A stretch of DNA of 30,231 nucleotides from a virus. Taxonomy: Duplodnaviria; Caudoviricetes. The number at the start of each line of letters is the position of its first letter. The first letter of the stretch is position 1. Below the pieces are notes generated by a model. It ran no database searches, was not told the DNA's origin, and saw only the letters and a list, made by a program, of their open reading frames with translations. Below are positions 318 through 30,231 of this stretch, in pieces. The position numbers and the translations under genes were made by a program. The stretch spans positions 1 to 30,231 of the IMG/VR virus record IMGVR_UViG_3300037325_000089, one strand, 5' to 3'.

Positions 318-349
318 AATCCCCCCTAGAGGGTAATCAGGAGACTATG
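318..349 (+). repeat. cassette junction repeat 1 (palindrome + RBS + ATG)
   Basis: AATCCCCCCTAGAGGGTAATCAGGAGA (27 bp, identical in 5 copies) followed by CTATG. Confidence 0.95.
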
Positions 350-1009
350 ACCATGGAAATGATGCACGAAGAGACCCATAGCGGCGTGAGCATCCGGGTT
401 TACTTGGACCCCGAGGGCGTGAGCATCTGCGACGTGGAACCGGAAGCGCCGGTCCGCATCATGCGCACTTATGATAGAAGCATCTGCGATAACCTGACTA
501 ACCCGGATTTATGCCTTGGCATGAGCGCGAGACACTTAGTAATCCTTGAGACGAGCGGCTGGCGCGCTTTAGTAATGCACGCGCACGGGGACACGGGCGA
601 GACGCCTTCCGGGCGCAAGTGGTGCGCTGCTTACACTGGCACTGTGTACGGCAGAACGTGGCGCGGTGTTTACGCTGCGCTGGAAGGGAGAAACGTGCGC
701 AAGCTGGCTCGCATCAGAACCTCCGTAATATACAACGAGCCGCGCGGCAGAGCTGTTTTCTATGCGGCGTGGGACCAAGCCGAGCTGGACGCATATGCAG
801 GCTGCAAAAACGCGCAGCCCGCGATCAAGAGTATGCGGCAGGCGCTTGAGGGCGAAGTCTTTGGCTTCATAGTGGACGAGGACGGCCCAGACGAAGACAG
901 CTGCTGGGGCTTTCTCGGCGAGATGGGGGCGTGCTTGATAGAGGCGCAAGCCTCGGCAGACACGATAGCTGCTAAGCGGACCGCCTCCGCTCTCATACTG
1001 AACGCATAA
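347..1009 (+). CDS. hypothetical phage early protein (220 aa)
   Basis: RBS supplied by the repeat and stop TAA supplied by the next repeat. The C-terminal FGFIV..DSCWGFLG motif is of a type I recall from other uncharacterised phage proteins. Confidence 0.85.
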   Translation: MTMEMMHEETHSGVSIRVYLDPEGVSICDVEPEAPVRIMRTYDRSICDNLTNPDLCLGMSARHLVILETSGWRALVMHAHGDTGETPSGRKWCAAYTGTVYGRTWRGVYAALEGRNVRKLARIRTSVIYNEPRGRAVFYAAWDQAELDAYAGCKNAQPAIKSMRQALEGEVFGFIVDEDGPDEDSCWGFLGEMGACLIEAQASADTIAAKRTASALILNA

Positions 1010-1044
1010 TCCCCCCTAGAGGGTAATCAGGAGAAGAGACCATG
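1007..1044 (+). repeat. cassette junction repeat 2
   Basis: TAATCCCCCCTAGAGGGTAATCAGGAGAAGAGACCATG. Confidence 0.95.
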
Positions 1045-1275
1045 ACCACTCTTATATCAACAAAGCTGCGTGGAGACGCCGAGGAAGTAGAGTTTCACGG
1101 AGACGCCCGCACCGCATGGACAATGCGGCAGGCTGCAATTGCAATAGAGCGGATGAGCGAAGCGCTCAGCGCGTGCGCTTACTACTTTGAGAACGCGCCT
1201 TGTGGCACGCCTGAGTTGCCTCTCGGGACGCGCGCCAGTTATGCGCTTCTCTGCCGAAAGGCTGACGTTTCGTGA
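1042..1275 (+). CDS. hypothetical early protein (77 aa)
   Basis: Start codon and RBS lie within repeat 2. Confidence 0.75.
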   Translation: MTTLISTKLRGDAEEVEFHGDARTAWTMRQAAIAIERMSEALSACAYYFENAPCGTPELPLGTRASYALLCRKADVS

Positions 1276-1319
1276 GCGTATATAGCGCCTGTTTCGCTGC
1301 CTCTGCCTGCTTCAGAGCC

Positions 1320-1363
1320 GCCCACTAATCCCCCCTAGAGGGTAATCAGGAGAAGAGACCATG
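1320..1363 (+). repeat. cassette junction repeat 3
   Basis: GCCCACTAATCCCCCCTAGAGGGTAATCAGGAGAAGAGACCATG. Confidence 0.95.
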
Positions 1364-1798
1364 ACCAGCAATGTAAGCAAGGGCGAGCTCAACCGGGCAA
1401 TGACCAAGCTCAACCGCCGCACGGGCAGGCCGGTATCGCCTGCCAAGGGCGACGAGCCTTGCGTGGGCCACCTGTTGCTTGATAATTCCAATTCAGGGAT
1501 GCGTATGTGGCAGATTATGAACGGTCAGGGGTTCGAGGTCGTTGCGCTAGACGGCCCGCACCGCACGAGCCGCGAAATGTTCGACCTTATCAGCGCCATG
1601 ATTGTCGCGCTCGACCTCGCGGCTTCCCCCCCGAAGGCGCACGTTCTTGATGATAGCCCGGCGCAGGTTGAGCGGGTCGCTCGCGCCCTGCACGGCAGAG
1701 CCAACAAGAGCCAGAAAAGTGCGGCGTGGGATACTGCGCCGCCCGCCTCAAGAGACGCTTGGCGCAAGCTGGCCGTTGTCGCAATAGCAGCCCACTAA
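1361..1798 (+). CDS. hypothetical early protein (145 aa)
   Basis: Starts in repeat 3 and stops at the TAA of repeat 4. The C-terminal VERVARALH..W..R..A.AI segment is typical of small phage proteins. Confidence 0.85.
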   Translation: MTSNVSKGELNRAMTKLNRRTGRPVSPAKGDEPCVGHLLLDNSNSGMRMWQIMNGQGFEVVALDGPHRTSREMFDLISAMIVALDLAASPPKAHVLDDSPAQVERVARALHGRANKSQKSAAWDTAPPASRDAWRKLAVVAIAAH

Positions 1799-1833
1799 TC
1801 CCCCCTAGAGGGTAATCAGGAGAAGAGACTATG
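1790..1833 (+). repeat. cassette junction repeat 4
   Basis: GCCCACTAATCCCCCCTAGAGGGTAATCAGGAGAAGAGACTATG. Confidence 0.95.
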
Positions 1834-2157: not shown

Positions 2158-2201
2158 GCCCACTAATCCCCCCTAGAGGGTAATCAGGAGAAGAAACCAT
2201 G
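2158..2201 (+). repeat. cassette junction repeat 5
   Basis: GCCCACTAATCCCCCCTAGAGGGTAATCAGGAGAAGAAACCATG. Confidence 0.95.
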
Positions 2202-2768
2202 ACCAGCACCAACACTCGCCAGACCGTCGAGGTTTACGGGGACATTACTGCGTTTGTACGGGGAGCGACGCGCCACCTGCCCGCCATCGTCGCCCGTTCG
2301 ACCGGCGACCTGCCTTACACGACGCGATCCCTTGATAGGTACATAGTGCAAGCTGTCGGCCTTGTGCTCAAGGAAGCAACCAGCCCTGCGTACAGAGCGG
2401 CGCAAGGGTTCGCCAGAGAAGCCGGGTTCACGACCGGCAGGGAGAACGCCTCTGACCTTTTGTCGAACGCCACCGACGATGACAATAACGACCTGCTCAG
2501 GTTCTCGGTGCAGTCTGTCCTGCTTAGCATGGTGTCGCTGCAAATGCAGCGGGGCGCGTTTATTCTGGAGGACGACCTGCAAACCATGCTCCGTCCTCTG
2601 CCTCTTTGGGTTCCATTCCACACACGAGTTACTGACGCTGCGATAATCAAAGCGTCTCGGGTGGCCCGGAAGATTACCGGCGAGCTGGCGGACGTTGTGG
2701 ACATTAGCGCCGGGCTGCACAACAGCATAGTCGAGATGCACAACGTGGAGGCTACTTCCCCTCTGTAG
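2199..2768 (+). CDS. hypothetical early protein (189 aa)
   Basis: Starts in repeat 5; its stop TAG lies inside the palindrome at 2755-2774. Confidence 0.8.
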   Translation: MTSTNTRQTVEVYGDITAFVRGATRHLPAIVARSTGDLPYTTRSLDRYIVQAVGLVLKEATSPAYRAAQGFAREAGFTTGRENASDLLSNATDDDNNDLLRFSVQSVLLSMVSLQMQRGAFILEDDLQTMLRPLPLWVPFHTRVTDAAIIKASRVARKITGELADVVDISAGLHNSIVEMHNVEATSPL

Positions 2769-2778
2769 GGGAAACACG

Positions 2779-2841
2779 TCGAAGCCTGATCCGCTCCGGC
2801 CTGCGTCTCTAGCTGAGGCGCAGCGCGGAACTGATCCACTA
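2779..2841 (+). repeat. 63-nt structured element, copy 2
   Basis: Same conserved blocks as 10-72 with a different but still pairing 13-nt apical part. Sandwiched between palindromes at 2755 and 2841. Confidence 0.85.
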
Positions 2842-2869
2842 ATACCCTATAGAGGGGAAAGGATAGACC

Positions 2870-3268
2870 ATGGATTACTTCTCTATCATAGACGGGGCAA
2901 AGGCGGTCATAGTGACCGCTGGCGTCTACCGCCAAGTGGATGTGTTTGAACGCGCTGGCTACCTGTACGCTGCGCGGGGCAATGGCTTTATTCGTCTGCT
3001 GGCAAGCGGCAAGACTTCGGACCCGCGTACCTTGTGGCGCGAGTGCGACGTTGACGGAGGACACTTGGTTCAGTCTGGGTCTTACATTGTGCGCGGCGGC
3101 GTAGTGCCTGACGCCCTGCCCGGTGTAGCTTCCCCTGTGGAGGGGATAACGAAGGACGTTGGAAGGTTCGCCCACGACCAGCGGCGGTTGGAGGCGGTCG
3201 CTAAGGTGACGGAAGCCAGAAACAAGAGACGGGCCGACGCGAAGTCAGCAAGAGAGGGAATGAAATGA
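2870..3268 (+). CDS. hypothetical phage protein (132 aa)
   Basis: AAGGA RBS upstream; beta-rich N-terminal half GVYRQV..R..LYA..G.GFIRL; ATGA overlap with the next gene. Confidence 0.8.
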   Translation: MDYFSIIDGAKAVIVTAGVYRQVDVFERAGYLYAARGNGFIRLLASGKTSDPRTLWRECDVDGGHLVQSGSYIVRGGVVPDALPGVASPVEGITKDVGRFAHDQRRLEAVAKVTEARNKRRADAKSAREGMK

Positions 3269-3465: not shown

Positions 3466-4037
3466 CTATGACCAATAGAATAGACGCCGCTGTAAATTCG
3501 CTCTATGTGAAAAACCATCGCGCGGAGTGGTCGAGGATGGGCTTTGCCCCCATGACCGTCTCGGTGCATGATAGCGACAAAGAGCACGCCAAGGCGCTGA
3601 TCGAGCTGCTGCGCTTTGAGCGGCTTATGCGTAGCATCGAGGCTGGCGATGCGGAGGTTATCGACTTCGTGGCTGGCCGCAACATGCAGCGCCTCCCCTC
3701 CAACGAGGTGCTGCGGTTGCGGCGCGAGGCTGTCCTTTATGCCATGCTGCCCAAGCCCACAGAAAATAAGATAGTGGCCCTGCTTGATGTGGCTACTACC
3801 TTAATGACCGACTGCATGGGCTGGCGCAGGATGATGCACGACGACCCGGCCAACGACACGGTTCGGGCAAAGTGCGTGTGCGCCAATAACTTGGCGGTCG
3901 CTCACGCCTTGCTCGCGTCCGCGCTCATGTCTGTGCATTGTGTGACGCCCGGCAAAGCACAATCCCCCGCAGGGGGTAATGCTCCCGAGCCGATGCAGGC
4001 GGTGGTTGCTAACCCTAAAAGGTTCGGCAAGCAATGA
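3462..4037 (+). CDS. putative DNA-binding protein with N-terminal ribbon-helix-helix-like segment
   Basis: NHRAEWSRMGFAPMTVSVHDSDKEHAKALIELLR fits a helix-G-beta(alternating)-helix pattern like RHH/MazE-like DUF3018 proteins. The ORF is solid; the function is inferred. Confidence 0.5.
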   Translation: MTMTNRIDAAVNSLYVKNHRAEWSRMGFAPMTVSVHDSDKEHAKALIELLRFERLMRSIEAGDAEVIDFVAGRNMQRLPSNEVLRLRREAVLYAMLPKPTENKIVALLDVATTLMTDCMGWRRMMHDDPANDTVRAKCVCANNLAVAHALLASALMSVHCVTPGKAQSPAGGNAPEPMQAVVANPKRFGKQ

Positions 4038-5377
4038 TCCGCCCAACGCTCATGCGCATCCAAGACGAAGATGCAGATAGGTTGATACAGGGGGACATAC
4101 CCAACCATAGCCTAGCGGGGACAGGTAAAACCCTGTCTACGCTGGAGGCTGTGAAGCGGGCGGGCCATGATCGGGGACTTGTTTTGGGGCCGCTAATTTC
4201 AATGGAGATGTGGAAGGAGCAGACAGAAATGTGGCTAGGCGCTAAGGCGCAAATCCTGCGCTCTGGCGCTGATAAGATCAAGCCCGACACTGATTTTGTT
4301 TTGTGCCCGTATGACCTTGCCGCAGGTAGCCAGCGGGCCAGACTGCGCGCGCACTTTAACAAGGGCGCGTTGATACTGGACGAGGCGCACTATCTGCGCG
4401 GCTATGGTTCCAAGCGGTCGCAGGCGGTGTTCGGCGCAGAGTATGACGGAGACAGGGGGTTTATGGAGCTGTTCGACCATGTGTGGTCTCTGACAGGAAA
4501 CCCGGTGTGGTCGCATAGCAACGATATGTGGACGCAGCTAGTCGCCTTGTTCCCTAAAGTGTTCTCGCAGTACGGGGTGACTGAGTACCAGAATTTTGTG
4601 CGTAGCTTCTGCGTTATTAAATGGATAACCGTCCATAAAAAGCTACCACAAAAACCAAAAATTGTGGCGAGCACGTCCTCTAGGCTGCTAAACCGCATAG
4701 TGTACCATGACATAGGCGCAATCAGGAGAGAGGAAGCGCTGGACCTGCCGCCGCTGACGTTTGCCTCGCTGACGGTGAAGCCAGACCGACTACCGAAGCA
4801 CTATGCCGCCATGCTGTCCAAGATGACTGACCGAGAAATAGAGGTTGCTCTAAAGTTTAGCAAGGCAGGGCCAGACGACGAAGACACCGGGCTGCAAGGC
4901 GTTTGGCAAGCGCTGGCCCTGTCGGTGGTGGGTCCGGTTGTGGAGCACATAGAGAACATATCCCGCAATAGCCCGGTGCTGGTGGGCGTGTACCATACCG
5001 CCGTAGGCGATGCGTACGTTGCAGAGCTTGAGAAGCGCGGGCTGTCTGTCGGCGTGGTGCGGGGTGGCGTGACGGTGAAGAAGCGCGAAGAGATAAGGAG
5101 TGCGTTTAACCAAGGAAACCTTGACGTTATCGTCGGCCAAATGACCGCGATGGGGGTCAGCTGGAACCTACAGGCTATGTGTCACAGGGTAGTGATAGCG
5201 CAGGACTGCCCGAGCGCGTCCACCATAGAGCAGTTTTACAAGCGGGTGCAGCGCACTGGCCAGACGCAGCCTGTCATCGTGGATACAGTGATGCCGACGC
5301 ATCCTCTTAGCTTGGCTATCGCTCGCATGAGGCGTGCCAAAGGCGCAGAGCAGCGGATCGTACGTACCGGAGAATAA
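4034..5377 (+). CDS. SF2 (SNF2-like) DNA helicase
   Basis: Walker A GTGKT, Walker B ILDEAH, motif III LTGNP, motif V MGVSWNL, motif VI QFYKRVQRTGQ. Confidence 0.92.
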   Translation: MIRPTLMRIQDEDADRLIQGDIPNHSLAGTGKTLSTLEAVKRAGHDRGLVLGPLISMEMWKEQTEMWLGAKAQILRSGADKIKPDTDFVLCPYDLAAGSQRARLRAHFNKGALILDEAHYLRGYGSKRSQAVFGAEYDGDRGFMELFDHVWSLTGNPVWSHSNDMWTQLVALFPKVFSQYGVTEYQNFVRSFCVIKWITVHKKLPQKPKIVASTSSRLLNRIVYHDIGAIRREEALDLPPLTFASLTVKPDRLPKHYAAMLSKMTDREIEVALKFSKAGPDDEDTGLQGVWQALALSVVGPVVEHIENISRNSPVLVGVYHTAVGDAYVAELEKRGLSVGVVRGGVTVKKREEIRSAFNQGNLDVIVGQMTAMGVSWNLQAMCHRVVIAQDCPSASTIEQFYKRVQRTGQTQPVIVDTVMPTHPLSLAIARMRRAKGAEQRIVRTGE

Positions 5378-5411
5378 TCCCCCTTGCAGGGTAAACAGGA
5401 GAAGCGATATG
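5375..5411 (+). promoter_or_regulatory. variant cassette junction (stop + palindrome + RBS)
   Basis: TAATCCCCCTTGCAGGGTAAACAGGAGAAGCGATATG. It supplies the helicase stop and the RBS/ATG of the next gene. Confidence 0.85.
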
Positions 5412-5723: not shown

Positions 5724-5854
5724 CGCGGCACCGCTCCCCCAGCAGAGGGACGCTGCGCCGCCACCGTGGTAGTGTTGTCGCCTTGGCGGTGCTGTCAATG
5801 TTGACAGTGTTAGCAGCGCTGGTTGGCGTTGCTGTGGCGATGATTTTGTACTAA
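5720..5854 (+). CDS. small single-pass membrane protein (44 aa)
   Basis: ATGA overlap with the upstream stop. MTRHRSPSRGTLRRHRGS is followed by a ~26-aa hydrophobic stretch. Confidence 0.6.
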   Translation: MTRHRSPSRGTLRRHRGSVVALAVLSMLTVLAALVGVAVAMILY

Positions 5855-5863
5855 TGGCAACAC

Positions 5864-5892
5864 TTGACAACGCCTTGCGTTCTTGCTATAGT
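5864..5892 (+). promoter_or_regulatory. sigma70-type promoter for the replication module
   Basis: TTGACA (5864-5869), 17-bp spacer, TATAGT (5887-5892) with an extended -10 TG. Intergenic, upstream of 5955. Confidence 0.85.
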
Positions 5893-5954: not shown

Positions 5955-6833
5955 ATGTTCGACGCTAAAACTCTGGCGCAACCTACCAACGTGCTGCGTA
6001 GGGCACTGGACGCCAACATCCGCAAAGAGACGCGCATGTGGCCAGTGTTCGGCGGCGGGCACTTGATGCGCAAGTCCTATGTCTCATCTTCTGAAGTTGG
6101 CAAGTGTCTGCGTATGGCGTTCTTCAACAAGCGCTACGATGACTTGGGCTGCTTCATCGAGGCTGACGACTTGGAGCGTTCCCCTCTGGGGGGGAATATG
6201 GACACTCTTCCCAAAGGGTTTATCACGGGGGCAATGCCCGGTAACTGGGGGTACGCAGAGCGGGGCAACGCTCAAGAAGAATGGCTGGTAACTAAGCTAC
6301 GGGGTGGCGTGCCGGGGACCAGCTTCATGTTTCTCGGCTCCAACCAAGTTAGCTTTGTGGACGGCAACAGAAGCGGCACGCCAGACGGGCTGGCGGTACG
6401 GCCCAAGGGCGACTTCACCCTTGAGTTCAAGAGCTACGACCCTCGCAAGAAAATGTCTGGTATGCCTGTCCCCGCTCACATAGCGCAGGTGATCCAGAAC
6501 ACCGACCTCATGCAGATCGCCATGCCAGAGCGAAACCTCGTTGGCGGGCTGCTGACCTACACAGAGGCGTCTGACTACAACAAGGGTCCAGAGTTTTGGA
6601 TTGACACAAAAGCCGCCCCTGCGAAAGAGTACCTTGCAGACCTCAAGGTGCGCGCTGACACCGTGTTTACTGCCTCGGCACCCGACGAATTGCCCGCCGA
6701 AGGCATCCACAACGGAGACTGCCAGTACTGCCCGCACACTGCGAGATGCTCAGCGGCGGGTACCATGATTAAACAGGAGAAAGAAAACCGTGACCGAGCA
6801 ATCGACATCGCCCGCACCATCTTCTCTCGATAA
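5955..6833 (+). CDS. Cas4-like PD-(D/E)xK exonuclease with Fe-S cysteines
   Basis: SSEVGKCLR, SGTPDGL, LEFKS, AQV, and C-terminal CQYCPHTARC (1+3 Cys arrangement). Confidence 0.85.
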   Translation: MFDAKTLAQPTNVLRRALDANIRKETRMWPVFGGGHLMRKSYVSSSEVGKCLRMAFFNKRYDDLGCFIEADDLERSPLGGNMDTLPKGFITGAMPGNWGYAERGNAQEEWLVTKLRGGVPGTSFMFLGSNQVSFVDGNRSGTPDGLAVRPKGDFTLEFKSYDPRKKMSGMPVPAHIAQVIQNTDLMQIAMPERNLVGGLLTYTEASDYNKGPEFWIDTKAAPAKEYLADLKVRADTVFTASAPDELPAEGIHNGDCQYCPHTARCSAAGTMIKQEKENRDRAIDIARTIFSR

Positions 6834-7122: not shown

Positions 7123-7284
7123 CGATCATGGTCCCCAGCCGGTAGCTCTGGGGGGTAACTAGGGCGCTTCGTGTCTCCCCAGCGCGACGGTCCACGAGCC
7201 ATAAATCTTCCCCTCTACGGGGGAACCTACCGGAAGCTGACACCGGCACTTGTTAGCCACAGACCAACGAAGGCGAAATGACAA

Positions 7285-8251: not shown

Positions 8252-8293
8252 GCTACTTTAGGGATTACCCTACACAGGGGAAAGGGCCACCGG

Positions 8294-8545: not shown

Positions 8546-10422
8546 TTACCCAAGCTGCGTCCTACGAGAACACAGAGGCGCTGCTGGCTAAGTCTAGCGC
8601 CTCCTGTGTAATGGCTACCAGAGAGCAGGCCATGGCATGGCTGGCTACCATGGTAGACTTTGCTTTGGACTTCGAGACCACCTCGCTGGACCCTCGGGTC
8701 GGGCGGGTGCGGCTCACTTCTATCTGCAATGACGACCATCACTTCATCATTGACCACGATATGTGTGGGCCGCTGTCCGACTACATTCCCCTGCTGAGGG
8801 GAAAGACTACTGGTGCCAAGGTCGTCTGGGTGTACAACTCAAAGTTTGAGACAACGTGGATCGATCACAACGACCCTCTGTCTTTTGATAGCAGCAAGTG
8901 GATCAGGACGCGCGACGTTGATTTTCTAGCCAAGGCGCACATTGGCGGGCACCCGTCTAGCCTCGCCAAGATGGTCAAGCGCGACCTCAAGGCGATCATC
9001 GACAAGCAAGAGCAGAATAGTAACTGGGGCGATCCGTACTTGTCTCCCTCGCAGCTGGACTACGCAGGGTTCGACAGCTACTTGACGTGGCAGCTCAAGC
9101 AGCACTGGTTCGCCAAGCTGGAGCAGAGCCAGATCGACGCCGCAGAGTTTGTCTTTGACTACTCCGTGCGCGGCACTACCGAGTGCGAGCGCACAGGCAT
9201 AGAGCTAGATGCTGACTACCACTCGGGCACGGTTAGCCTGTGGGAGATGAAGCACGCCACGTTCTTGCGGTACATACGTAAACTTACCCCCGAGGGGGTA
9301 ATAAAGAACCTCAATAGCGACATGCAGATAGGCAAGTATCTTGCCACCATCCTACCGCAAGAAGTCATAGACCACTGGCCGCGCACTGAGAAGAAGAAGC
9401 AGATGCAGTTCGAGGGCAAGTACCTTCGGTCTATATCCAGAAACTTCGGGTACCCGTTCTCTCGGTGGCTGGCTGCGCTGGCTGGCTACAAGTATTACAG
9501 CAAGTACCTGTCCACCTACGGCGACACTCTGCTGAACAAACAAGCGCTGAGCGGCGTAGTGACTGCGCGCTACAATATCGCGCAGGCAGCTACAGGGCGC
9601 TATTCGTCCGCTAATGTCAACAAGCAGAACATACCGCGTAAGCAGGTGGTGCGTAAAGCCTTCTATGTTTCGGACCCGACACTAGAGCTCTTGTGTCTCG
9701 CGGACTACAAAGGCGTAGAGATTAGGGCGCTGGGGGAGATTTCTGGCGACAAGCAGCTGTTGTATGACGCCACGTACTCAGACGTTCACGCGGCGTCTTG
9801 CGCGGCGATTTACGACTACGCTTTGGACTGGGTGCTACAAGTGCTGGACAGCATGGGCAAGGGAGAGCTGGGAGCCAAGTACATGCTGTTGAAAGAGCAG
9901 CGCTCTAAGGCTAAGGGGTTTACCTTCCAGCTTATTTACGGTGCGGCGGCTGCTGCCCTGTCTGACGTGTTGAAGTGCTCTGTCTCCGAAGCAGAGGGCG
10001 CTCTGGACGCTTGGGTTGCTCGATACCCGAAGGCGTACAACTACCGTAACACTATCTATTCGCATATGCAAGTGACCCACGGCTTCATACCTATTGCCGA
10101 TGGCCGCTCGGTCTACGTGCATCGTGACGACAGGACTATGCCCATCGCCGCTAACTACGGCGTGCAAGGCATCGCCGCTTCGGTGATGTACCGGGCAGTA
10201 GGTAGGACGCACCGCTTGTTTGTGGAGAGAGATATACCGGCCAAGCTGGCTGCTACTGTACACGATGAGCTCATATCGCGCTCAGAAACATCCGCCGCAG
10301 AAGAGGCGATGGCCGCACAGATCGAGGGCATGACGCAAGCGTGGCTTGACGTGTTCCCCGGCTCCGACACTGCCAACCTGATCGACTGGAAGATCGGAAC
10401 TACGTGGGCAGATAAACCGTAA
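8542..10422 (+). CDS. polA: family A DNA polymerase with 3'-5' exonuclease domain
   Basis: ExoI DFETT, ExoII YNSKFE, ExoIII YAGFD, TGRYSS, motif A ADYKGVEIR, motif B RSKAKGFTFQLIYG, motif C TVHDEL. Confidence 0.96.
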   Translation: MITQAASYENTEALLAKSSASCVMATREQAMAWLATMVDFALDFETTSLDPRVGRVRLTSICNDDHHFIIDHDMCGPLSDYIPLLRGKTTGAKVVWVYNSKFETTWIDHNDPLSFDSSKWIRTRDVDFLAKAHIGGHPSSLAKMVKRDLKAIIDKQEQNSNWGDPYLSPSQLDYAGFDSYLTWQLKQHWFAKLEQSQIDAAEFVFDYSVRGTTECERTGIELDADYHSGTVSLWEMKHATFLRYIRKLTPEGVIKNLNSDMQIGKYLATILPQEVIDHWPRTEKKKQMQFEGKYLRSISRNFGYPFSRWLAALAGYKYYSKYLSTYGDTLLNKQALSGVVTARYNIAQAATGRYSSANVNKQNIPRKQVVRKAFYVSDPTLELLCLADYKGVEIRALGEISGDKQLLYDATYSDVHAASCAAIYDYALDWVLQVLDSMGKGELGAKYMLLKEQRSKAKGFTFQLIYGAAAAALSDVLKCSVSEAEGALDAWVARYPKAYNYRNTIYSHMQVTHGFIPIADGRSVYVHRDDRTMPIAANYGVQGIAASVMYRAVGRTHRLFVERDIPAKLAATVHDELISRSETSAAEEAMAAQIEGMTQAWLDVFPGSDTANLIDWKIGTTWADKP

Positions 10423-10456
10423 TCCCCTCCAGAGGGTAAACAGGAGACTTACTATG
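10420..10456 (+). promoter_or_regulatory. variant cassette junction (stop + palindrome + RBS)
   Basis: TAATCCCCTCCAGAGGGTAAACAGGAGACTTACTATG. Confidence 0.85.
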
Positions 10457-21028: not shown

Positions 21029-21735
21029 TGTGTAACTCCTGTTAGGCGCACGGTCAGCGCGCTTAGTTTGCTCTCTACGCCTGTGATTGTCGTTGGGGCG
21101 CCAAAGAACGAGGCCCCAGTCACAGACGCCATAAGAGCATAAGTACCACCGTCAGCTGGTACTTCCAACGTGCCGGATACTGGCACATGGATTTGCGATT
21201 GCCCAGCCTTGCATAGCATCTGACCCATACCACGACCAACCGGAGTTGTCAACGCTGACGCTTCTGCGATGTAAGACGCAGCGGTCACTGCGTCTCCTGA
21301 CGACACGTACAAGGTAAAGTATCCTTCAAGCAGGTACATTCCCCCTAAGAGGGTAATCTCGTAGGTGCTGGCGTTAAACGATCCCCACACAGGGTTATCA
21401 CTGAGCGACGTAGGTAGCGGCACGCGGTTCGCGCCCACAGAAGCGGCGAACGTGGTTGAGGCAGTGTTGGTTACAAACAGCCCTGCGCTGACAGTCTCTT
21501 GATTGGGGATTACCCAAGACGCTCCGTCAGAGTGTACTGGCACACCCACTGCCGGGTCGTACAACAGCACCCCGGCTATTGACGCACGCTCAATAAGGTC
21601 CGTCATGCGCCAGCGAAGCAGAGGTGACACAGGCCGCAGGGTCTCCTCTGCGTACCCTCCCCCGGCCACGTCTGCCTCGTAGACGGCGCGCGCCCACGCA
21701 TCAATGGACATCAGCCGGGGGTTTGGGATGCTCAT
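21025..21735 (-). CDS. putative tail/fibre-associated protein
   Basis: Coupled overlaps on both sides; beta-rich C-terminal domain. Confidence 0.65.
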   Translation of the reverse strand: MSIPNPRLMSIDAWARAVYEADVAGGGYAEETLRPVSPLLRWRMTDLIERASIAGVLLYDPAVGVPVHSDGASWVIPNQETVSAGLFVTNTASTTFAASVGANRVPLPTSLSDNPVWGSFNASTYEITLLGGMYLLEGYFTLYVSSGDAVTAASYIAEASALTTPVGRGMGQMLCKAGQSQIHVPVSGTLEVPADGGTYALMASVTGASFFGAPTTITGVESKLSALTVRLTGVTQ

Positions 21736-23249
21736 CGCCCAGCTCCGGGAGTGACTACGAGGCGCATAGTGCCTACTCTGGCAGAGCTAGACAACAGGTC
21801 CATGCGCAGCCTGATCTGTCTTCCAGAAGCGCGTACGCTGGTGGGGTTGGCATAGGCATAGGGGCCGTAGGCGTACTCCGTGGCCGTTGGCATGTCTCTG
21901 CCGTAGAGAGTCATAGACACGTCCCCAACGTCAGCTGTGTCGGGCAGGACAGAGCCCACGCACAGCACACGCTCGCCGGAACCAATCTCCATCGGACCAG
22001 TGGCGCAAAACACTGTGCCGTCGGGCATTACCCCGTTGACCTCGTGGTTGTATATTACCCCGTCTGGGGTAATCATCAGCGGACTAGCTACAGGGTCAGC
22101 GTCCATGGCAGCAGTACGTCTCAGCGATCCAGTCATCCAGACGTTCTGGACATAATTCCACGAAACGTACTTGTCGATGCTGTCGCCGCTAACGCTTTGG
22201 TACAGCCACCAGATTTCACTTGAGGCGTGGATGGATGTGCCAACAACCGTGCTAAGCTGCGACTTGTCCATGTCTTCGATCAGGTAGTCCAGCACCTCAC
22301 ACGGCAGCGGTTGCAGTGTCCCATCGTACACCCAAAATGTCTCTTTGCCAAGCCACACAGCAAAAGTGTCCGTAGCAACCACAGCGTCAGCAGCCACAGT
22401 ACCGCATTGCGTGCCCACTTGTGACGTACGATAGACGTAAGGAGGGCCGATGTAGGTCGCCAGTACAGCGTCAGACGCTCCTACGATCAGCACGCCAGCC
22501 GCTATCTGCACAGCGGTCAGCAGCTTACCGTCACCAGCCAGAGTTCTTGACCCTGCCTGATTGGCTCGGGCGGGTGCCCAGACAGTCCTGTTTTCTACCT
22601 CAGAAAACGCAATGGCACGGGGCTCTCCGTTCACCCCGATAGCAAAGACTTGGCGCTCTTGGGTGACAATAATGTCTTGGGTGTGCTCAGGAGCGTTTGT
22701 CACAGCAGCGAGCTCCAGAGTGTCTAGGTCGAGCTCGTAGATAAGGCCAGTGCCTTCCGTATCGTTACGCTGCACAGCGAGCAGCAGCTCCCCGAAAGTA
22801 GCGAACGCCCACCGCAAGGGCGGGATAGGGTCTACTCCGGCCAGATTGTTAGACACTCCGTACGCACCTAGCCCGTATGGACTACCGCCGTACCCTACGT
22901 TAGTGACGGGGCTTTTGGCAGACGTTGATCCCCCTGCTGGGGTAATGTCAGTAATAGCGCCAGCTTGACTCATGTGGTACAGCTTCAGGTTGCTGCCGAA
23001 CACCACATTTAGCGCGCCGTCTAGCGCTCGCCAGCCGAACACATCGCGGACAGCTTCCGCAGCACTGTCAGAGAACAGCGCGGGTATGTCTACACCAAAC
23101 GTGTCTTGTCTGCGCAGCCAGCCGCCAATAGGGCGCACAGTAGCGTCCCTCCAGCGGATTAGGTTCCCATCGGTCCATCTGCCGGGGCTGCTGTACGGCG
23201 TGTCATTACGTTGCAGGCCCGGAGGTAGCTTGAGAGGGATCGGCTTCAT
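21732..23249 (-). CDS. tail nozzle / stabilisation protein (P22 gp10 / T7 gp12-like)
   Basis: PGL..GRW.D..LIRW..RPIGGW N-terminus, beta-propeller-like repeats, and C-terminal VRASGRQIRLR..G.MRL...AGR. Confidence 0.8.
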   Translation of the reverse strand: MKPIPLKLPPGLQRNDTPYSSPGRWTDGNLIRWRDATVRPIGGWLRRQDTFGVDIPALFSDSAAEAVRDVFGWRALDGALNVVFGSNLKLYHMSQAGAITDITPAGGSTSAKSPVTNVGYGGSPYGLGAYGVSNNLAGVDPIPPLRWAFATFGELLLAVQRNDTEGTGLIYELDLDTLELAAVTNAPEHTQDIIVTQERQVFAIGVNGEPRAIAFSEVENRTVWAPARANQAGSRTLAGDGKLLTAVQIAAGVLIVGASDAVLATYIGPPYVYRTSQVGTQCGTVAADAVVATDTFAVWLGKETFWVYDGTLQPLPCEVLDYLIEDMDKSQLSTVVGTSIHASSEIWWLYQSVSGDSIDKYVSWNYVQNVWMTGSLRRTAAMDADPVASPLMITPDGVIYNHEVNGVMPDGTVFCATGPMEIGSGERVLCVGSVLPDTADVGDVSMTLYGRDMPTATEYAYGPYAYANPTSVRASGRQIRLRMDLLSSSARVGTMRLVVTPGAGR

Positions 23250-23281
23250 GGTTTACCCTCCAAGGGGGAACATGGAATAGG

Positions 23282-24364: not shown

Positions 24365-24416
24365 TGTGCTGCCCTTTCAAAAGCAAATAATCCCCTTGGC
24401 AGGGGATTGTCTGCGG

Positions 24417-25085
24417 CTACCAGCGGCGACGGATTGGGTGACGGTGTACTGGTGTGACGTGCAGAGGAGAGCCGCCGTACTCGACTTCCCACAGTGACTC
24501 ATCGTTTGCGCTGGTGAGGGCTGCTTTGTAAAGGCTCTGCCACAGGCCGACGCGCTCGTCTTCGCGCAGAAACGGGGCAGTGTGCATAAGCACGCCGTAC
24601 AAGTAGACATCAAAGTACTCGTCGGCCACCCAGCTGGTATCAGCGTCAGCAAAATTAGGGATGCCCTTGCGGTAGGTGATAGCCATGTCGGCGGGCAAGT
24701 CCGCAGAGATGTTGCCTGCGAACAAGATAGTGTCCTTGTTCAGCATGGCGTAGGTGTCGTATATCCCCCCCGACAGGGGAATGATCTGTTTGCTGCGCAC
24801 GGTGGCAACAGTGGCAGCACTCATAGGGTTGCGCCCAATAATCCGTGTTGGGTCGTTAAGCACAATAGACTTTATGGTGCGCAAAGGTGAGGTGAGCGCT
24901 GACGTGAGGAAGGTAGTACTAGAGACAGAAACAACCTCGCTCACATTGCGGTGAGAAAGGCGCAGCTCTCGCTCTAAATCAGCGTTAGCCAGCAGGATCA
25001 AGTTGTCGAGGTTGTCAATCAGCACACTGTCATTCTGCTTCCACAGAAAGGTACTGATGAACGTCTTAAACCCTGCATAGTTCAT
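24417..25085 (-). CDS. head-to-tail adaptor protein
   Basis: MNY..K..I..L, I.LA.A.L.R.LR and D.YLYG.L...APFL..DER...W pattern of podovirus adaptors. Confidence 0.8.
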   Translation of the reverse strand: MNYAGFKTFISTFLWKQNDSVLIDNLDNLILLANADLERELRLSHRNVSEVVSVSSTTFLTSALTSPLRTIKSIVLNDPTRIIGRNPMSAATVATVRSKQIIPLSGGIYDTYAMLNKDTILFAGNISADLPADMAITYRKGIPNFADADTSWVADEYFDVYLYGVLMHTAPFLREDERVGLWQSLYKAALTSANDESLWEVEYGGSPLHVTPVHRHPIRRRW

Positions 25086-25811: not shown

Positions 25812-25831
25812 ATTCCCCCTAGCGGGGGAAT
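25812..25831. promoter_or_regulatory. perfect palindrome copy downstream of the capsid gene (possible terminator role)
   Basis: ATTCCCCC-TAGC-GGGGGAAT, extended by AC/GT on each side. Intergenic, 17 bp after the capsid stop. Confidence 0.6.
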
Positions 25832-26858: not shown

Positions 26859-27902
26859 TTATTTCCTTTGGGTGATGAGCGTTGCGGCAATGTCTGAGAC
26901 TTTGCCGCCCCTCGTTCTGGCGCGGATCGTAGCTTCCGTTGTTGCGGCAGCAGCAGCCTTGGCGGCGGTAGCACGGGCAGCGGGTCCGGCGCTAAGGCGA
27001 CGGACGGTGCGCTGCTCGACAGCCTCAACCAGACTTGCAGCGGCGGAAGTCTTTGCGGCCAAACGGGCAGCGTGGACTTGCGCCAAATCGTTCATCATCC
27101 GATACATGCGGTGATCCTGAGCAGCAGAGATTTCAGCAGGGGAGTAGCCATAAATCTCAATGGCGACTCTCCGCATCATAGCCAGCCGTGCTTTCCCCTT
27201 CGCAGGGTCTTTTAGCACGGGCAGCGCTTGTACGACCAATGCGGCCTGCTCTCTGGTGTAGCGATCACGGAGGACAAGCATACCCGCCGCATGGTCAGTG
27301 ACCAATTTCTGCACAGCAGCCCGACCATTGCTGACGCGGTTAGCGTCGGCAGTGTAGGCGTCCAGCGCCTCGATGTAGGCGGCAGGGTCGCTGCGCAGAG
27401 AGTCTGCTGGCATAGCAACAAGAGGCGTGTACAGCACCGTCTCAAGGTCGCCCAGCAAACCGATCATACCCGTACTTGCGGCGTCGAACTCAGCAAGCAG
27501 CCGGGTGTGGTCTGCTTGATAGGCGTTCTTGGCTTCGGCGGCTGCTTTGAGCCGGTTTTCGATGCCACCTTCGCCGGACAACGCTTGCTTTGCTTCACGG
27601 AGACTGCGATACACCACCACGCCGTCAATTTTGACTTCGATCAGATCGTCGTCGCTGACGGAGAGGACAGCGCCAGATGCGTCATCTTCCGGGGTAGTAA
27701 GGTCACTCGACAGGGGTGCTGAAAGCAGAGCATCCCCAGCAGACGTGCCCAGTGTGGCAGGAGCGGGTGCCTCGGCAGGGTTGAGAGACAGCTCGACTGC
27801 TTCGAGCGGCGCGGCCACAAGAGCGGCGTCAACATTCCCCTCAGCAGGGGAAATTTGAGCAAGCAGTGCGGCAGCGACCTTCTCTTTGTTTGACTCAACC
27901 AT
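26859..27902 (-). CDS. capsid scaffolding protein
   Basis: Acidic N-terminus, VKIDG..V.L.E motif and helical body; lies between portal and capsid. Confidence 0.8.
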   Translation of the reverse strand: MVESNKEKVAAALLAQISPAEGNVDAALVAAPLEAVELSLNPAEAPAPATLGTSAGDALLSAPLSSDLTTPEDDASGAVLSVSDDDLIEVKIDGVVVYRSLREAKQALSGEGGIENRLKAAAEAKNAYQADHTRLLAEFDAASTGMIGLLGDLETVLYTPLVAMPADSLRSDPAAYIEALDAYTADANRVSNGRAAVQKLVTDHAAGMLVLRDRYTREQAALVVQALPVLKDPAKGKARLAMMRRVAIEIYGYSPAEISAAQDHRMYRMMNDLAQVHAARLAAKTSAAASLVEAVEQRTVRRLSAGPAARATAAKAAAAATTEATIRARTRGGKVSDIAATLITQRK

Positions 27903-28104
27903 TGGCCTTGACCTTCCTCATAAGCGCATCTGCCAGCTTGTGGCGTCGATACGCAACCTCTCGCCCGGCTACATCATCGTCGGATGTGGCCATTAAGTCC
28001 TTGATACATTCTTGCTTTTCGTTTGTCAAGAAGATTTCAAAGTCAGGATTTCTTGCTAGACGCCTCGCTGCGTCCTGCACTCGCTGTTGGTTCAGACTGG
28101 TCAT
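27895..28104 (-). CDS. small conserved head-module protein (69 aa)
   Basis: Probable start ATG 28104 (AGGA RBS); A.RL..NP.F..REVAY pattern; sits between portal and scaffold. Confidence 0.65.
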   Translation of the reverse strand: MTSLNQQRVQDAARRLARNPDFEIFLTNEKQECIKDLMATSDDDVAGREVAYRRHKLADALMRKVKANG

Positions 28105-30196
28105 TGTTCTTGTCCTGTGCTGCGGCAATTTTAGCGGCTAGAGTGTCCGCTTTGAGCTGATTGGCTGCAATCATCGCCTCTTGCACCAGCTTGTCGCGGG
28201 CGATGTCTTGAGTGCCTGCGGCGATGCGCGCTTTGAGAACGCGCTCCTTGGCAGCGTTTTGAGCGTCTGCGGTAATCTTGAGCTGCGATACCTGCGCGTC
28301 CATGCCCTTCATCTGCAAGAGCGCCTGCGAAGGGTCCATAGGAGTATTCTGTTTGCCAGACTCAGCAGCCGCAGCTTCGTCCTGCGCTTGGCCGTCCTTG
28401 ATGGCCTTCTCGACTTCGGGAGTAACCACCTTGAAGTACCTGCCGGGGTTAGTCAGCCCAAACAGCATAGTCAAGTCTTCGATGGTGTTGTAAATCTGTT
28501 CCAGAGACGTGAACGGGTTGTCCAGCCCCATGGTTGCCATGATGGACTCTTGCTTCTCCAGAACAAATTGCAGGCCAGCAAGCCTCTGCTCCGGGCTAGT
28601 AGTCCCCAGCCCGACGTTAGGAACAGCAGCAAGATCGCAGCTGAACCCGGTCAGGTTGACCGGCAGCACTACGCCCTTCGTCTGGATAACCTGAATAGGG
28701 TCAAGGTGCGATATGCTGAGGCGCAGCATCTTCTTAAAGATGCCGATAATTGCTGTTTGCACGATGTTGCGCACCATCAGCTCTGCTTGGCCTTTTGCCA
28801 TGGCGATAGTGTTCTGCACCGCTTGCGCATCCGTAGACTGCATCGCATTAGCGTCAAGACCAGTTGACGCCTTTGTAAAGCCGGTGCGCTGTTCCGTGTC
28901 CTGCTCGATGTGCAGGACAAGCGGAAGCAGGCCAGCAGCAGTAAACGGGATGTCTACCACCTGAACAGGCCCGCGACTTTTGATCGGAGCGCCAAGCGCG
29001 GGGTTCATAAGGTCGGCAAAGTCAATCAGTGAGGGGTCGCCAGCAAGCCGAGGGTTGTTTGAGGCGTGTGCGTTGTCCAGCATTGCCCTAAGCAGCGACG
29101 TTTCAATGTCTTGCTTGTCTTCTGTTATGTCGCTAATAGACCTGCCGATAGCGGAGAACGGGATGGGGTCGTGCTGTAGCAAGTCAATTTCATAGTCGTC
29201 AATTTCTTCGTGGTGCAAATACTCGTAAGCATTGCCCCCGAAGTAGAACAGATAAAGCTGAGGGTAGCCCAGTTTTTTGATGTCGAACCAGCAGTAAGTC
29301 TCAGTCAGCATAATATCGACAGCAGTAATATCTTTGCTGTCTGCCATGTCCTGCGTGGGTTGATAACCCCGACGGGTACGAGCAACGTCAGAGTAGTCTC
29401 CGGTCTCTTTGCTAGTAGCTGTAAGAGAACGCCAGTCATCGTGGTCAAGCCCCATCTCGATTGCCTTAGCAACCGTGACTGTCCGCTGCAAGCCGTGTAC
29501 CTTGGCGTCCTCGATCTTTGTGGCTTCGCTGTTGATGAAGAAGGCGTAGATCGGAAACGCTTCAGTGACAATCGAGCCATGAGGAAACGTCTGCGTCGCA
29601 AACACGTTGTACAATGGCGGAACGTCCATATCCCCCTCCACGGGGGATTGTTCCGGCTCAAAATACGTGATTTCGTTGATGTCCACGTTGGGGAGCTCTT
29701 CGATGTCTGAGACTTGAGACGCAGTGACCCCGTACATAGTGAGCTGTCGTGGGGTCGGGCTCTCGACCCAAGTGGTCCTGATTGGACCAGCTTTCAGGCG
29801 AAGAGACTCTTGGATAGCGTTCTGCAACACAAAGTAGCCGCCACTGGCGGCAAAGCGCTGCTGCACAAACAGCTCTTGCTGCTCAATAACGGCAGCGTGG
29901 CTGATATTTGTGGGTATGTAATTCACAGGGCGGTTGGAGTGCATAAGCGTGCGCATGATTGACGGCAGCGCAGTCCTTATGGTGTCGGCGACAACAGTTT
30001 TGACCGCTGTTGACCTGCCCGCAGCCGTGGGAACAGAAGACCCGCCATTTATGTAGTCCTCGGCCACCGCCCAATCAACGCTGAACTCTGATAGCATGAA
30101 CGCCACCGCCGTCTCGGTGTTGGCTTTGGCCTCTAAAGTGGCGGCTTCCAGCGTGATGCCGATTTTCTGCTTTGCCATGACGAGACCGCACTCCAA
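28043..30196 (-). CDS. portal protein
   Basis: GRS..V...V.DTI....PS.MR, P.PFS..GRSI.D...D.Q...T.L.R..LDN....NNPR, E.RTG. The start may be ATG 30178. Confidence 0.9.
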   Translation of the reverse strand: MECGLVMAKQKIGITLEAATLEAKANTETAVAFMLSEFSVDWAVAEDYINGGSSVPTAAGRSTAVKTVVADTIRTALPSIMRTLMHSNRPVNYIPTNISHAAVIEQQELFVQQRFAASGGYFVLQNAIQESLRLKAGPIRTTWVESPTPRQLTMYGVTASQVSDIEELPNVDINEITYFEPEQSPVEGDMDVPPLYNVFATQTFPHGSIVTEAFPIYAFFINSEATKIEDAKVHGLQRTVTVAKAIEMGLDHDDWRSLTATSKETGDYSDVARTRRGYQPTQDMADSKDITAVDIMLTETYCWFDIKKLGYPQLYLFYFGGNAYEYLHHEEIDDYEIDLLQHDPIPFSAIGRSISDITEDKQDIETSLLRAMLDNAHASNNPRLAGDPSLIDFADLMNPALGAPIKSRGPVQVVDIPFTAAGLLPLVLHIEQDTEQRTGFTKASTGLDANAMQSTDAQAVQNTIAMAKGQAELMVRNIVQTAIIGIFKKMLRLSISHLDPIQVIQTKGVVLPVNLTGFSCDLAAVPNVGLGTTSPEQRLAGLQFVLEKQESIMATMGLDNPFTSLEQIYNTIEDLTMLFGLTNPGRYFKVVTPEVEKAIKDGQAQDEAAAAESGKQNTPMDPSQALLQMKGMDAQVSQLKITADAQNAAKERVLKARIAAGTQDIARDKLVQEAMIAANQLKADTLAAKIAAAQDKNNDQSEPTASAGRSEASSKKS

Positions 30197-30231
30197 TTAG
30201 TAGCAATAGTTTCCCCTCTCAGGGGGAAGTT

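Follow-up and report, generated by a model that had tools for sequence, protein, structure and literature searches.

A genome-wide array of evenly spaced palindromic sites in a podophage and a candidate protein that may read it

Results and discussion

Gene content and lifestyle context of the window

The DNA analysed here—the window, 30,231 nucleotides of IMG/VR record IMGVR_UViG_3300037325_000089—is part of the genome of an uncultured podophage whose head is of the phiM5/LUZ24 type (Table 1). Terminase and lysis genes were not found among the 37 window ORFs scanned, and complete relatives measure 42-43 kb, leaving ~12 kb of this genome missing; reader proteins other than the one proposed below are therefore possible. 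Scans of the complete relative G001 found neither an integrase nor a partition gene, and no prophage of the clade was recognised in GTDB, where two matches were obtained, neither shown with host flanks. The HTH family was absent from the 37 ORFs of the (partial) window and from 31 ORFs of G001, while one ORF of the related contig L110 gave a weak Cro match (E 0.027). ParB, TetR, and MatP families had no match among the ORFs scanned, CsoR/RcnR was not recovered in Pfam scans of the window or G001, and a small CxxC protein had no PDB match. Promoters were scanned with the sigma-70 consensus only.

Table 1. Positions of the palindromic sites and selected features in the window
Feature	Position	Strand	Context
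Site 1	319..336		between stop codon and ribosome-binding site (RBS) of early gene 347
Site 2	1009..1026		early-cassette boundary; identical site + AATCAGGAGA repeat
Site 3	1328..1345		early-cassette boundary
Site 4	1798..1815		early-cassette boundary
Site 5	2166..2183		early-cassette boundary
Site 6	2756..2773		overlaps 3' end of gene 2199-2768
Site 7	2842..2859		12 nt 5' of gene 2870
Site 8	3130..3147		coding, SPVEGI
orf189, candidate reader	3468..4037	+	predicted ribbon-helix-helix (RHH)-type homodimer
Site 9	3962..3979		orf189 3' end, 55 nt 5' of helicase start; same column in L110
SNF2-type helicase	4034..5377	+	
Site 10	5377..5394		helicase stop / RBS of gene 5409
One-mismatch site	5735..5750		coding
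Strong sigma-70-like promoter match, 11/12	5864..5892	+	sole one; no site overlaps
Site 11	6179..6196		coding, Cas4/RecE-like exonuclease
Site 12	7208..7225		intergenic, 61 nt 5' of gene 7285
Site 13	8265..8282		13 nt 5' of gene 8294
Site 14	8786..8803		coding, DNA polymerase A, IPLLRGK
Site 15	9284..9301		coding, DNA polymerase A, LTPEGVI
Site 16	10422..10439		polymerase stop / RBS
Site 17	10750..10767		coding, RusA, FPSGGD; alignment column shared in 6/6 array genomes
Site 18	11836..11853		coding, primase-polymerase
Site 19	12965..12982		final codons of gene 12962-15286, at convergent junction
Site 20	15070..15087		coding
Site 21	17135..17152		coding, 1261-aa protein with tail-lysozyme domain
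Site 22	18605..18622		coding, same 1261-aa protein gene
Site 23	19731..19748		coding, codon 8
Site 24	20829..20846		coding
Site 25	21339..21356		coding
Site 26	22055..22072		coding, virion structural protein
Site 27	22928..22945		coding; sole site missing from strain G003
Site 28	23253..23270		tail-fibre stop to following start
Site 29	24390..24407		intergenic, 5' of tail-fibre gene
One-mismatch site	24765..24780		coding; exact in G003
Site 30	25813..25830		directly past major capsid gene stop
One-mismatch site	27194..27209		coding, scaffold
Site 31	27835..27852		coding, scaffold codon 18; same column in G001
One-mismatch site	29632..29647		coding, portal
Site 32	30211..30228		upstream of portal gene

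A palindromic word repeated about once per kilobase

A motif scan of the whole window recovered 32 exact copies of the palindrome WTMCCCY-N4-RGGGKAW between positions 320 and 30227, where 100 dinucleotide shuffles of the window gave an expectation of 0.01 and a maximum of 1. The original prediction, made from the letters alone, had listed the same 32 exact copies and two with one mismatch; four of the latter are present, bringing the total with at most one mismatch to 36 (0.41 expected). Its estimate of about one site per 0.9 kb agrees with the mean gap of 964 bp, and its ceiling of ~2.1 kb on gaps stands with near copies included (largest gap 2105 bp) but is exceeded among exact copies alone (2376 bp). 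It had further placed ~20 copies within genes, reading the peptides SPVEGI, IPLLRGK, LTPEGVI, and FPSGGD across four of them, all of which are present; 17 of the 32 exact copies, or 21 of 36 with near copies added, are wholly coding, and they occupy both strands and all three frames. Synonymous-codon shuffles yielded 0.32 coding copies (maximum 3 in 1000) against the 17 observed, supporting the earlier claim that selection acts on DNA, not protein.

The word has the form expected of a dyad: it reads the same on both strands, the strand-symmetrised matrix shows the same symmetry, and the A/T-rich flanks already remarked upon prove to be A or T on each side of the 16-bp core in 32/32 sites, extending the motif to 18 bp. 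The arms were described earlier as conserved and the central four bases as free. Comparison with strain G003, which is 94% identical to the window and retains 28 of 29 aligned sites, upholds the first part, with 2/232 fixed motif positions changed against 5.7% genome-wide (P = 1.4e-4) and 11/116 central positions changed; the second does not fully hold, as C occupies central base 1 in 38/64 and T base 2 in 32/64 strand-symmetrised sites. Because arms are perfect in just 10/32 sites and mismatches include C.T (12), A.G (4), and C.A (8), sites for a dimeric protein fit better than a hairpin, as had been proposed. The array very probably consists of sites for a binding protein.

Related phages carry arrays with words of their own

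Conservation in related phages, put forward earlier as a check, is borne out: four relatives (43-53% GC) bear their own TMCC-N7/8-GGKA arrays, with 50 sites in 42.7 kb (G001), 15 in 20.5 kb (L110), 25 of an N7 form in 29.2 kb (G008), and 27 in 42.2 kb (G009). The window's full consensus occurs at 0/49, 0/14, and 0/27 sites of G001, L110, and G009, respectively. Site spacing exceeds uniform evenness in four of the five lineages, and with boundary sites held fixed the coding sites still even out the gaps (CV P = 0.011 in the window, <1e-4 in G001, 0.002 in L110, 0.0025 in G008, and 0.08 in G009)—a test based on crude ORF calls, in which G009 falls short of significance. G008 and G009 were detected through the DNA motif alone; among the 54 loci fished in this way, a clear array was seen in three (from two genomes), all three with an orf189 homologue, three more with weaker enrichment were structural-region fragments of the clade, one held a local cluster, and 47 had neither an array nor an orf189 homologue.

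A sister clade instead repeats the hexamer AGTCAG 124-162 times per genome; 86-105 of the copies are in genes, where synonymous shuffles give 19-29. In L136 (polymerase identity 38%) a sparser dyad of like geometry is present, ACTGCAC-N6-GTGCAGT (three exact copies and seven with at most three substitutions in 20.7 kb), and phiM5 has TGTCAG 178 times; an orf189 homologue was detected in neither L136 nor phiM5.

Orf189 as candidate reader

All five array lineages encode an unnamed protein of ~180 aa (Orf189, 189 residues in the window), with close homologues throughout (E 3e-47 to 4e-38). Its gene lies upstream of the SNF2-type helicase in 9/9 genomes examined, and 4/4 sister-clade genomes have a divergent homologue in that position (profile match probability 84%, E 8e-6). 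In an all-against-all comparison, Orf189 and RusA were the only window clusters found in 5/5 array lineages and unlinked to seven other genomes, while a 110-aa protein (6790-7122) had an Orf189-like presence pattern by tblastn. The link between gene and array is weak against shared ancestry, because it rests on two clades. At 50% identity the family falls into at least 70 clusters, and it conserves Y13, R18, and W21; a weak MazE-like match (PF11455; best E 2.4e-4) was found in 4/61 members, and none in Orf189 itself.

The AF2 model of Orf189 (pLDDT 89) predicts an N-terminal helix (2-23), a ribbon (26-34) within an extended stretch (24-34), a helix (35-58), and a C-terminal helical bundle. The predicted homodimer scored 0.58 against 0.00 for the best control, a mark attained by 20/30 solved homodimers and 1/23 single chains; across the dimer runs contact agreement was at least 88% and partner pLDDT at least 68, and one run of three scored 0.04. 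Pairing is antiparallel (contacts 26-34, 28-32, and 30-30), so that the prediction shows the two-stranded antiparallel ribbon followed by helices of an RHH homodimer. The dimer score may stem from likeness to solved RHH dimers. RHH was not returned by any structure search; the one with VIA yielded generic helix bundles only, over residues 66-162, and hardly probed the N-terminus. In the TCCC clade the ribbon residues are atypical for DNA reading (P28, T30, and S32 in the window). On balance, Orf189 is probably the reader of the array, a view we hold with some reserve.

Comparison with known systems

The original prediction called the system undescribed, which does not stand: the closest published precedent, as far as the accessible text of that source goes, is the 17-bp dyad TGTTCGG-N3-CCGAACA of Cluster O mycobacteriophages such as Corndog, with 34 copies and invariant arms (PMC4351075). 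There, too, more than 30 dyads lie both between and within genes (32 in the window, 17 wholly coding; 50 in G001), without orientation to transcription and mostly off promoters (by sigma-70 scan in the window), in phages that are not evidently temperate, with indels arising by recombination between copies as also seen here; reader and function are left unexplained in that text. The window word is unrelated and its arms degenerate (TMCCCY-N4-RGGGKA), the head is of podovirus type rather than that of a prolate siphovirus, and here a candidate RHH-type reader co-occurs in five lineages, the word is lineage-specific, and spacing has been tested.

The L5 stoperators, offered earlier as an analogue, do not fit in symmetry or orientation and appear not to fit in lifestyle. 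Cluster A stoperators (L5, TipsytheTRex) resemble the window in that a single phage protein (a candidate here) has over 20 sites scattered across the genome, many in short intergenic spaces. In the available text, however, each is an asymmetric 13-mer that follows the direction of transcription and is recognised by an HTH immunity repressor acting as a monomer (PMC9283540). The window word is a dyad with over half its sites in genes and a predicted RHH-type dimer as candidate reader, the complete relative has no recognised integrase, and the 16 sites asymmetric at positions 2/15 fall 11 to 5 on the sense strand, five of the 11 being a single duplicated cassette repeat. The 21-nt repeats of the virulent T1-like phage TLS are likewise unexplained and often upstream of starts, but they are direct, non-palindromic, and transcription-oriented, 18/21 being intergenic and ~76 nt upstream of starts (PMC11447400).

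Proposed role of the array

Bacterial chromosomes offer another model: matS/MatP, SBS/SlmA, NBS/Noc, and parS/ParB are palindromes dispersed through genes that serve a structural, non-transcriptional job, although with other words and regional distributions. We favour the view that the window array may work like these. Of the five functions left open earlier (silencing, shielding, ejection, compaction, or packaging), the evidence points most to one that depends on coverage while the DNA replicates, and it now singles out a candidate protein. Specifically, Orf189 would be an early product of the replication operon, in which its gene precedes that of the helicase; its dimer would place the two-fold axis over the variable centre, the two N-terminal helices (Y13, R18, W21) would recognise the invariant outer TMCC half-sites, which lie roughly one turn of the helix from each other, and lineage-specific ribbon residues would tune the inner bases. 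Dimers bound about every kilobase would then leave no long stretch of the replicating chromosome uncoated, such that the selected property would be coverage, a self-mark organising phage DNA and limiting the run of processive DNA enzymes, of host or phage, rather than repressing particular promoters. If Orf189 is the reader, such a coverage role is reasonably likely; the whole proposal, in which Orf189 coats the lytic chromosome in place of stoperator-like silencing, is possible but falls somewhat short of probable. More speculative, and on the unlikely side, is a general scheme in which an RHH-type family barcodes phage chromosomes with an evenly spaced mark that shields or organises DNA in lytic growth, using two reading modes: in one clade the N-terminal helices would recognise a 15-20-bp dyad per ~1 kb, and in its sister the ribbon would recognise a 6-bp word per ~0.3 kb.

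Genome-wide words in non-temperate phages (Cluster O, T1-like) have been published, unexplained and with no proven reader named in the accessible texts; new here are a family of candidate readers, the statistic on gap filling, and the switch from dyad to hexamer. The barcoding scheme, if true, would supply the first identified reader for recurring lytic-phage dyad arrays and a phage counterpart of matS/SBS/NBS-type marking. Should even coverage be under selection, phages would be marking their chromosomes much as bacteria do, with bearing on how phage and host DNA are discriminated and on the recoding of phage genomes. The candidate is small and soluble and several natural protein/word pairs exist (window, G001, L110, G008, G009, and the AGTCAG clade), and the reader is therefore testable with synthetic genes and oligonucleotides without phage culture; Orf189 homologues could also yield orthogonal DNA-binding pairs.

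Alternative explanations

Orf189 might instead serve transcription, as an orientation-independent roadblock at many sites that shuts early genes and times the cycle, or that maintains a non-integrated carrier state immune to like phages, much as stoperators do. RHH proteins are commonly repressors, at many early genes a site fits tightly between a stop codon and the ribosome-binding site, density peaks in the early region (eight sites in the first 3.46 kb), 19/32 sites have a gene end within 60 nt, G008 and G009 have sites a little upstream of their orf189 homologue, and the lineage-specific words look like immunity groups. We nonetheless consider this rather unlikely, given that the late structural half holds 14/32 sites, coding sites fill the spacing gaps, the lone strong sigma-70 match is free of sites, and neither integrase nor partition gene was found in G001; in a ~95% coding genome, boundaries are also the cheapest location for sites. 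Less likely still is binding by another phage protein—the 110-aa protein, present in 5/5 array lineages, the small terminase, a virion protein ejected for stepwise DNA entry, or a long first-early protein encoded outside the window. This last is present in 3/3 array genomes covering that end and absent from the sister clade, and L136 has a dyad array without detected Orf189; yet the first-early protein, highly acidic at net charges of -39 and -26, has a sub-threshold DUF3102 lead only (0.84), the small-terminase candidate also occurs in the sister clade, which lacks the dyad, ejection proteins are scarcely conserved, and a DNA-binding dimer fold is predicted for none of these.

It is quite improbable that the sites act as decoys for, or dock, a CsoR/RcnR-family repressor or other dimer of the host. 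Operators of this family share the C-tract/G-tract dyad and A/T flanks, with TAC-N9-GTA in CsoR type 2 (PMC3902906) and TCC-N9-GGA for Mesorhizobium NreA (PMC12724321) in the text available, and a host protein, SrpA, is reported to bind a phage palindrome (PMC5945682). The 15-bp form of G008 has the same outer spacing, with TCC-N9-GGA 26 times. However, these are described as few promoter operators of host metal sensors, and the window is one base longer (TAC and TCC forms 5 and 18 with N10, 2 and 3 with N9), as are three other lineages (TCC-N10-GGA 58/19/37 against 3/4/4 with N9); only G008 has the operator spacing. Moreover, a dispersed array was seen in 0 unrelated phages among the 54 motif-fished loci, and decoys need no even spacing. 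It is very improbable, finally, that the sites form hairpins in RNA or single strands, signal nicking, or are left behind by recombination that shuffles gene cassettes: arms are mismatched in 22/32 sites by non-wobble pairs, and lone conserved sites lie deep in essential genes and are therefore not cassette ends. Some sites do score as weak terminator-like stems, and whole early cassettes differ between strains, bounded by a site and RBS repeat, with contig joints at 316-1326, 1041-1831, and 1827-2196.

A selected array of palindromic sites

The word TMCCCY-N4-RGGGKA occurs in 32 exact copies in the window against 0.01 expected, and in 36 copies with one mismatch allowed (0.41 expected). An A or T flanks the word at both ends in 32 of 32 sites, and the window site is therefore one of 18 bp. 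Seventeen of the 32 lie entirely within genes, in every reading frame and on either strand, whereas shuffling synonymous codons with the proteins held fixed gave 0.32 in-gene copies (maximum 3 in 1000 shuffles) and shuffling codon order gave 0.012; these genome-wide and in-gene expectations rule out chance or codon effects as the source of the array. The arms vary independently—they are perfectly complementary in 10 of 32 sites, and positions 2 and 15 pair C with T in 12 sites and A with G in 4—so that what is conserved is not a hairpin, a reading that the arm mismatches rule out. A terminator reading was likewise rejected, with 13 terminator-like elements against 10.5 in shuffles (window 1-13500).

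Comparison with the close strain G003 (28,845 aligned bases, 5.7% different) revealed changes at 2 of 232 fixed motif positions (P=1.4e-4), which fall together in a single lost site, as against 7 of 116 degenerate positions and 11 of 116 positions in the centre. Three window sites did not align; 28 of the 29 that did were retained, and one near-site of the window, with a single mismatch, is exact in G003. The array is real, under selection, and clade-wide.

Arrays in related phages

Related phages carry arrays of an altered word: 50 TMCC-N8-GGKA sites in G001 (mostly TCCCYR-N4-YRGGGA), 14 copies of TCCCCY-N4-RGGGGA in 20.5 kb of L110, 27 N8 sites in G009, 25 sites of a 15-bp N7 form in G008, and nine distinct sites across 17 kb of structural genes in another contig. 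The full consensus of the window is matched by no site of G001, L110, or G009. A site within RusA falls at one alignment column in all six sequences, and one within the helicase falls at a column shared by four lineages, the window not among them; most other aligned positions are lineage-specific. The alignments thus indicate that some site positions, namely the RusA and helicase columns, are old.

In four of the five array lineages the sites are spaced more evenly than a uniform distribution would give (CV 0.41-0.60), the fifth being G009 (0.80, not significant). When boundary sites were fixed and coding sites randomly redrawn, a test that rests on crude ORF calls, the observed CV remained low, with P values of 0.011 for the window, <1e-4 for G001, 0.002 for L110, 0.0025 for G008, and 0.08 for G009. 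Individual sites are gained and lost while coverage persists.

In G001, a cluster of off-spacing variants sits beside an exact copy ahead of the terminase, between the small- and large-terminase candidates. A second word, ACCGCC/ACCGCT, is enriched in G001 (46 versus 8 expected), G008 (48 versus 14), and G009 (64 versus 27), and is possibly Chi-like.

Orf189 as a candidate reader

When 635 ORFs from 12 genomes were compared all against all, two clusters from the window, those of Orf189 (a gene upstream of the SNF2-type helicase) and RusA, had members in every one of the five array lineages and no link to the seven remaining genomes; a 110-aa gene showed the same five-lineage pattern by tblastn. 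A word-indexed search with Orf189 returned only the self match, and an exhaustive search of 1.84 billion proteins with a three-row profile then gave 70 clusters. The 20 of these that were looked up had longest contigs of 0.9-42 kb, mostly short Logan contigs. With short fragments and the self match left out, the family alignment comprises Orf189 and 60 clusters (61 rows), in which R18, W21, G25, R71, N72, and A134 are nearly invariant; the tree of these rows, a quick version with few supported branches, underlies none of the claims made here. A weak match to the Pfam MazE-like family was found in 4 of 61 rows (best E 2.4e-4).

The AF2 model of Orf189 (pLDDT 89) has a helix at residues 2-23, an extended segment at 24-34, a helix at 35-58, and then a helical bundle. 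The predicted homodimer scored 0.58 against 0.00 for the best control (runs of 0.58, 0.04, and 0.70; 88% or better agreement, pLDDT no lower than 68). Among solved homodimers 20 of 30 attain the mark, as does 1 of 23 single chains; the pass of Orf189 may be a product of likeness to solved dimers. In the predicted dimer, residues 26-34 pair antiparallel around residue 30, as is typical of ribbon-helix-helix proteins. None of the structure searches with Orf189 named that fold: Foldseek gave no match at E<=0.001 in PDB or BFVD, the VIA search gave generic helix bundles only, and the ESM Atlas gave no match at >=0.9. A phage collection held no significant match to either of two family members, and viral-contig scans with a subfamily alignment or P0037 recovered no new locus. 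We also rejected a 104-aa CxxC protein, CsoR-like by eye, which was not detected in every array lineage, has no PDB match, and is unrelated to Orf189.

Association of the gene with the array

Two scans based on the DNA motif only yielded 54 distinct loci. A clear array was present in three (G008 twice, and G009), all with an Orf189-family gene; three with weaker enrichment were structural fragments of the same clade ending short of the gene, one was a local cluster, and 47 had neither array nor gene. G007 has neither the replication module nor the Orf189-family gene, and no array was found in it.

Four complete genomes of a sister clade (capsid 61-63%) have 0-1 TMCC-N8-GGKA sites, and all four encode a divergent Orf189 homologue upstream of the helicase (profile probability 84%), missed by a two-row profile and detected by a deeper one. 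In this homologue the Y..R..W helix pattern is missing and the ribbon is Q-V-R; its single-sequence structure model (pLDDT 42) was unusable. AGTCAG occurs 124-162 times in each of the four, well above synonymous shuffles, as opposed to 5-25 times in the dyad clade. Within this one protein family there is an apparent switch of word, with a long dyad in one clade and a hexamer in the other. The hexamer is asymmetric, lies on both strands at 2.7-4.9 per kb, and is the top hexamer in each genome; its origin may be host Chi-like or methylation-related.

The evidence for a gene-array link amounts to two clades, not nine independent cases. Two distant relatives have repeated words and no detectable Orf189 homologue: phiM5 (MF074189.1), with 178 copies of TGTCAG, and L136, with a sparse TGCAC dyad, where none of seven ORFs compared matched the Orf189 profile above shuffles. 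A profile of the three long early proteins did not find the 350-aa protein of L136, whose homology to them is therefore only putative. In phiM5, CTGTCA/CTGACA occur 186 and 178 times against 32 expected, and TGTCAA/TGACAA are enriched too, giving a YTGWCAR-like word; the L136 dyad spans 20 bp, equal to the AST-CCC...GGG-AST form. As a finding, the array is limited by phylogenetic dependence and these two exceptions, and on the comparisons above Orf189 is a candidate reader.

Comparison with known systems

The array is comparable to the matS, SBS, NBS, and parS systems. A full-text search of open-access articles, which is weak evidence of absence, found no description of the window word or the Orf189 family.

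The array belongs to the same descriptive class as the dyads of Cluster O mycobacteriophages, which number 34 copies, are partly intragenic and unoriented, show indels between copies, and have an unexplained reader and role (PMC4351075). Beyond this precedent, the present case offers a specific testable candidate reader, a spacing statistic, and the apparent dyad-to-hexamer switch. The array is not a stoperator system; stoperators lack dyad symmetry, have a set orientation, and are the targets of a monomeric HTH repressor (PMC9283540). T1-like 21-nt repeats differ in being oriented and intergenic (PMC11447400).

Proposed mechanism and rival explanations

The best explanation, which we hold tentatively and at rather less than an even chance, combines Orf189 as reader with a coverage role, whereby sites are kept so that no long stretch of chromosome is left bare. 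Orf189 dimers would be produced from the replication operon and would occupy the phage chromosome about every kilobase, marking the DNA as self; the coat would organise the chromosome and restrict the run of processive DNA enzymes. From the geometry, the helices would read TMCC and the ribbon would lie over the site centre, since the outer half-sites and outer helices are invariant and the centre or spacer and the ribbon are variable. Coverage is favoured because coding sites fill gaps, 14 of 32 window sites lie in the late half, sites show no orientation, the one strong sigma-70 match is not overlapped by a site, and the scans of G001 ORFs and of GTDB gave no sign of lysogeny.

The main rival is a transcriptional roadblock by Orf189 itself, given that many sites separate a stop codon from a ribosome-binding site and that site density peaks in the early region; we nonetheless consider it unlikely. 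Binding by another phage protein is less probable again, the long first-early protein that would be the rival reader being strongly acidic. Binding by a host CsoR/RcnR-type protein seems improbable: the operators of CsoR (PMC3902906) and NreA (PMC12724321) resemble the window word but are N9-spaced, a spacing shared by G008 alone among array lineages. Least credible, and given very little weight, is the idea that the sites are structural or a by-product.

Genome, relatives, and minor features

The window, a linear virus record, measures 30.2 kb. The complete genomes of G001 and G009 have direct terminal repeats and a length of 42-43 kb, which leaves the window short by about 12 kb. The capsid of G001 is 71% identical, and GC is 43% in G001 and 45% in L110. 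The nearest cultured capsid is that of Sinorhizobium phage phiM5 (42%) and the best cultured polymerase match is 26%; neither search found a close cultured relative. No integrase or HTH repressor was detected among 31 G001 ORFs scanned, the remainder being homologues of window genes, and a GTDB scan with a polymerase profile returned two contigs, with host flanks shown for neither. Close strains of the window occur in runs labelled as salt-lake and freshwater metagenomes, none of them listed as an RNA run.

Features and their coordinates
Feature	Sequence	Position	Strand	Remark
Small early genes, helicase, Cas4/RecE-like exonuclease, DNA polymerase A, RusA, primase-polymerase	window		+	
SU10-type portal, capsid, adaptor, tail proteins, large proteins	window		-	one large protein with tail-lysozyme domain
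Orf189	window	3468-4037	+	
104-aa CxxC protein	window	5409-5723		
110-aa gene	window	6790		
Major capsid gene	window	25849-26856		
Early gene cassettes	window	318-2200		each headed by identical site + AATCAGGAGA repeat
Joints of whole cassettes omitted by strains	window	316-1326, 1041-1831, 1827-2196		
~70-bp element	window	10-81, 2776-2841		each directly ahead of a gene start
Strain difference	window	10440-10485		after site 16
Dyad ACTGCACAA-NN-TTGTGCAGT	L136	1770, 4563, 4895, 10544, 13612, 17568		
Off-spacing site variants (N7, N9)	L080 (G001)	13040-13160		
Two short early-region ORFs	L110	1790-2303		(Ser-Gly/Trp/Arg) low-complexity repeats
AGTCAG clade	G004, G005, G006, G012 (L111-L116, L119-L121, L134-L135)			~20 shorter loci as well, e.g. 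L005-L014, L090-L104

Gain and loss of cassettes between identical early repeats is real and accounts for only those five or six sites. The ~70-bp element, which has an internal inverted repeat between CTGATCC direct repeats, is possibly an early promoter or processing signal. After site 16, the window retains only a remnant of about 10 codons at the position where ~395 other bases, an extra gene among them, are present in G003 and run X5. The major capsid gene is without a site in all four array genomes that include it, and a site follows its stop codon in both the window and G001. In L073, a distant capsid relative, 15 kb contains 35 copies of GAGCTC where 6 would be expected.
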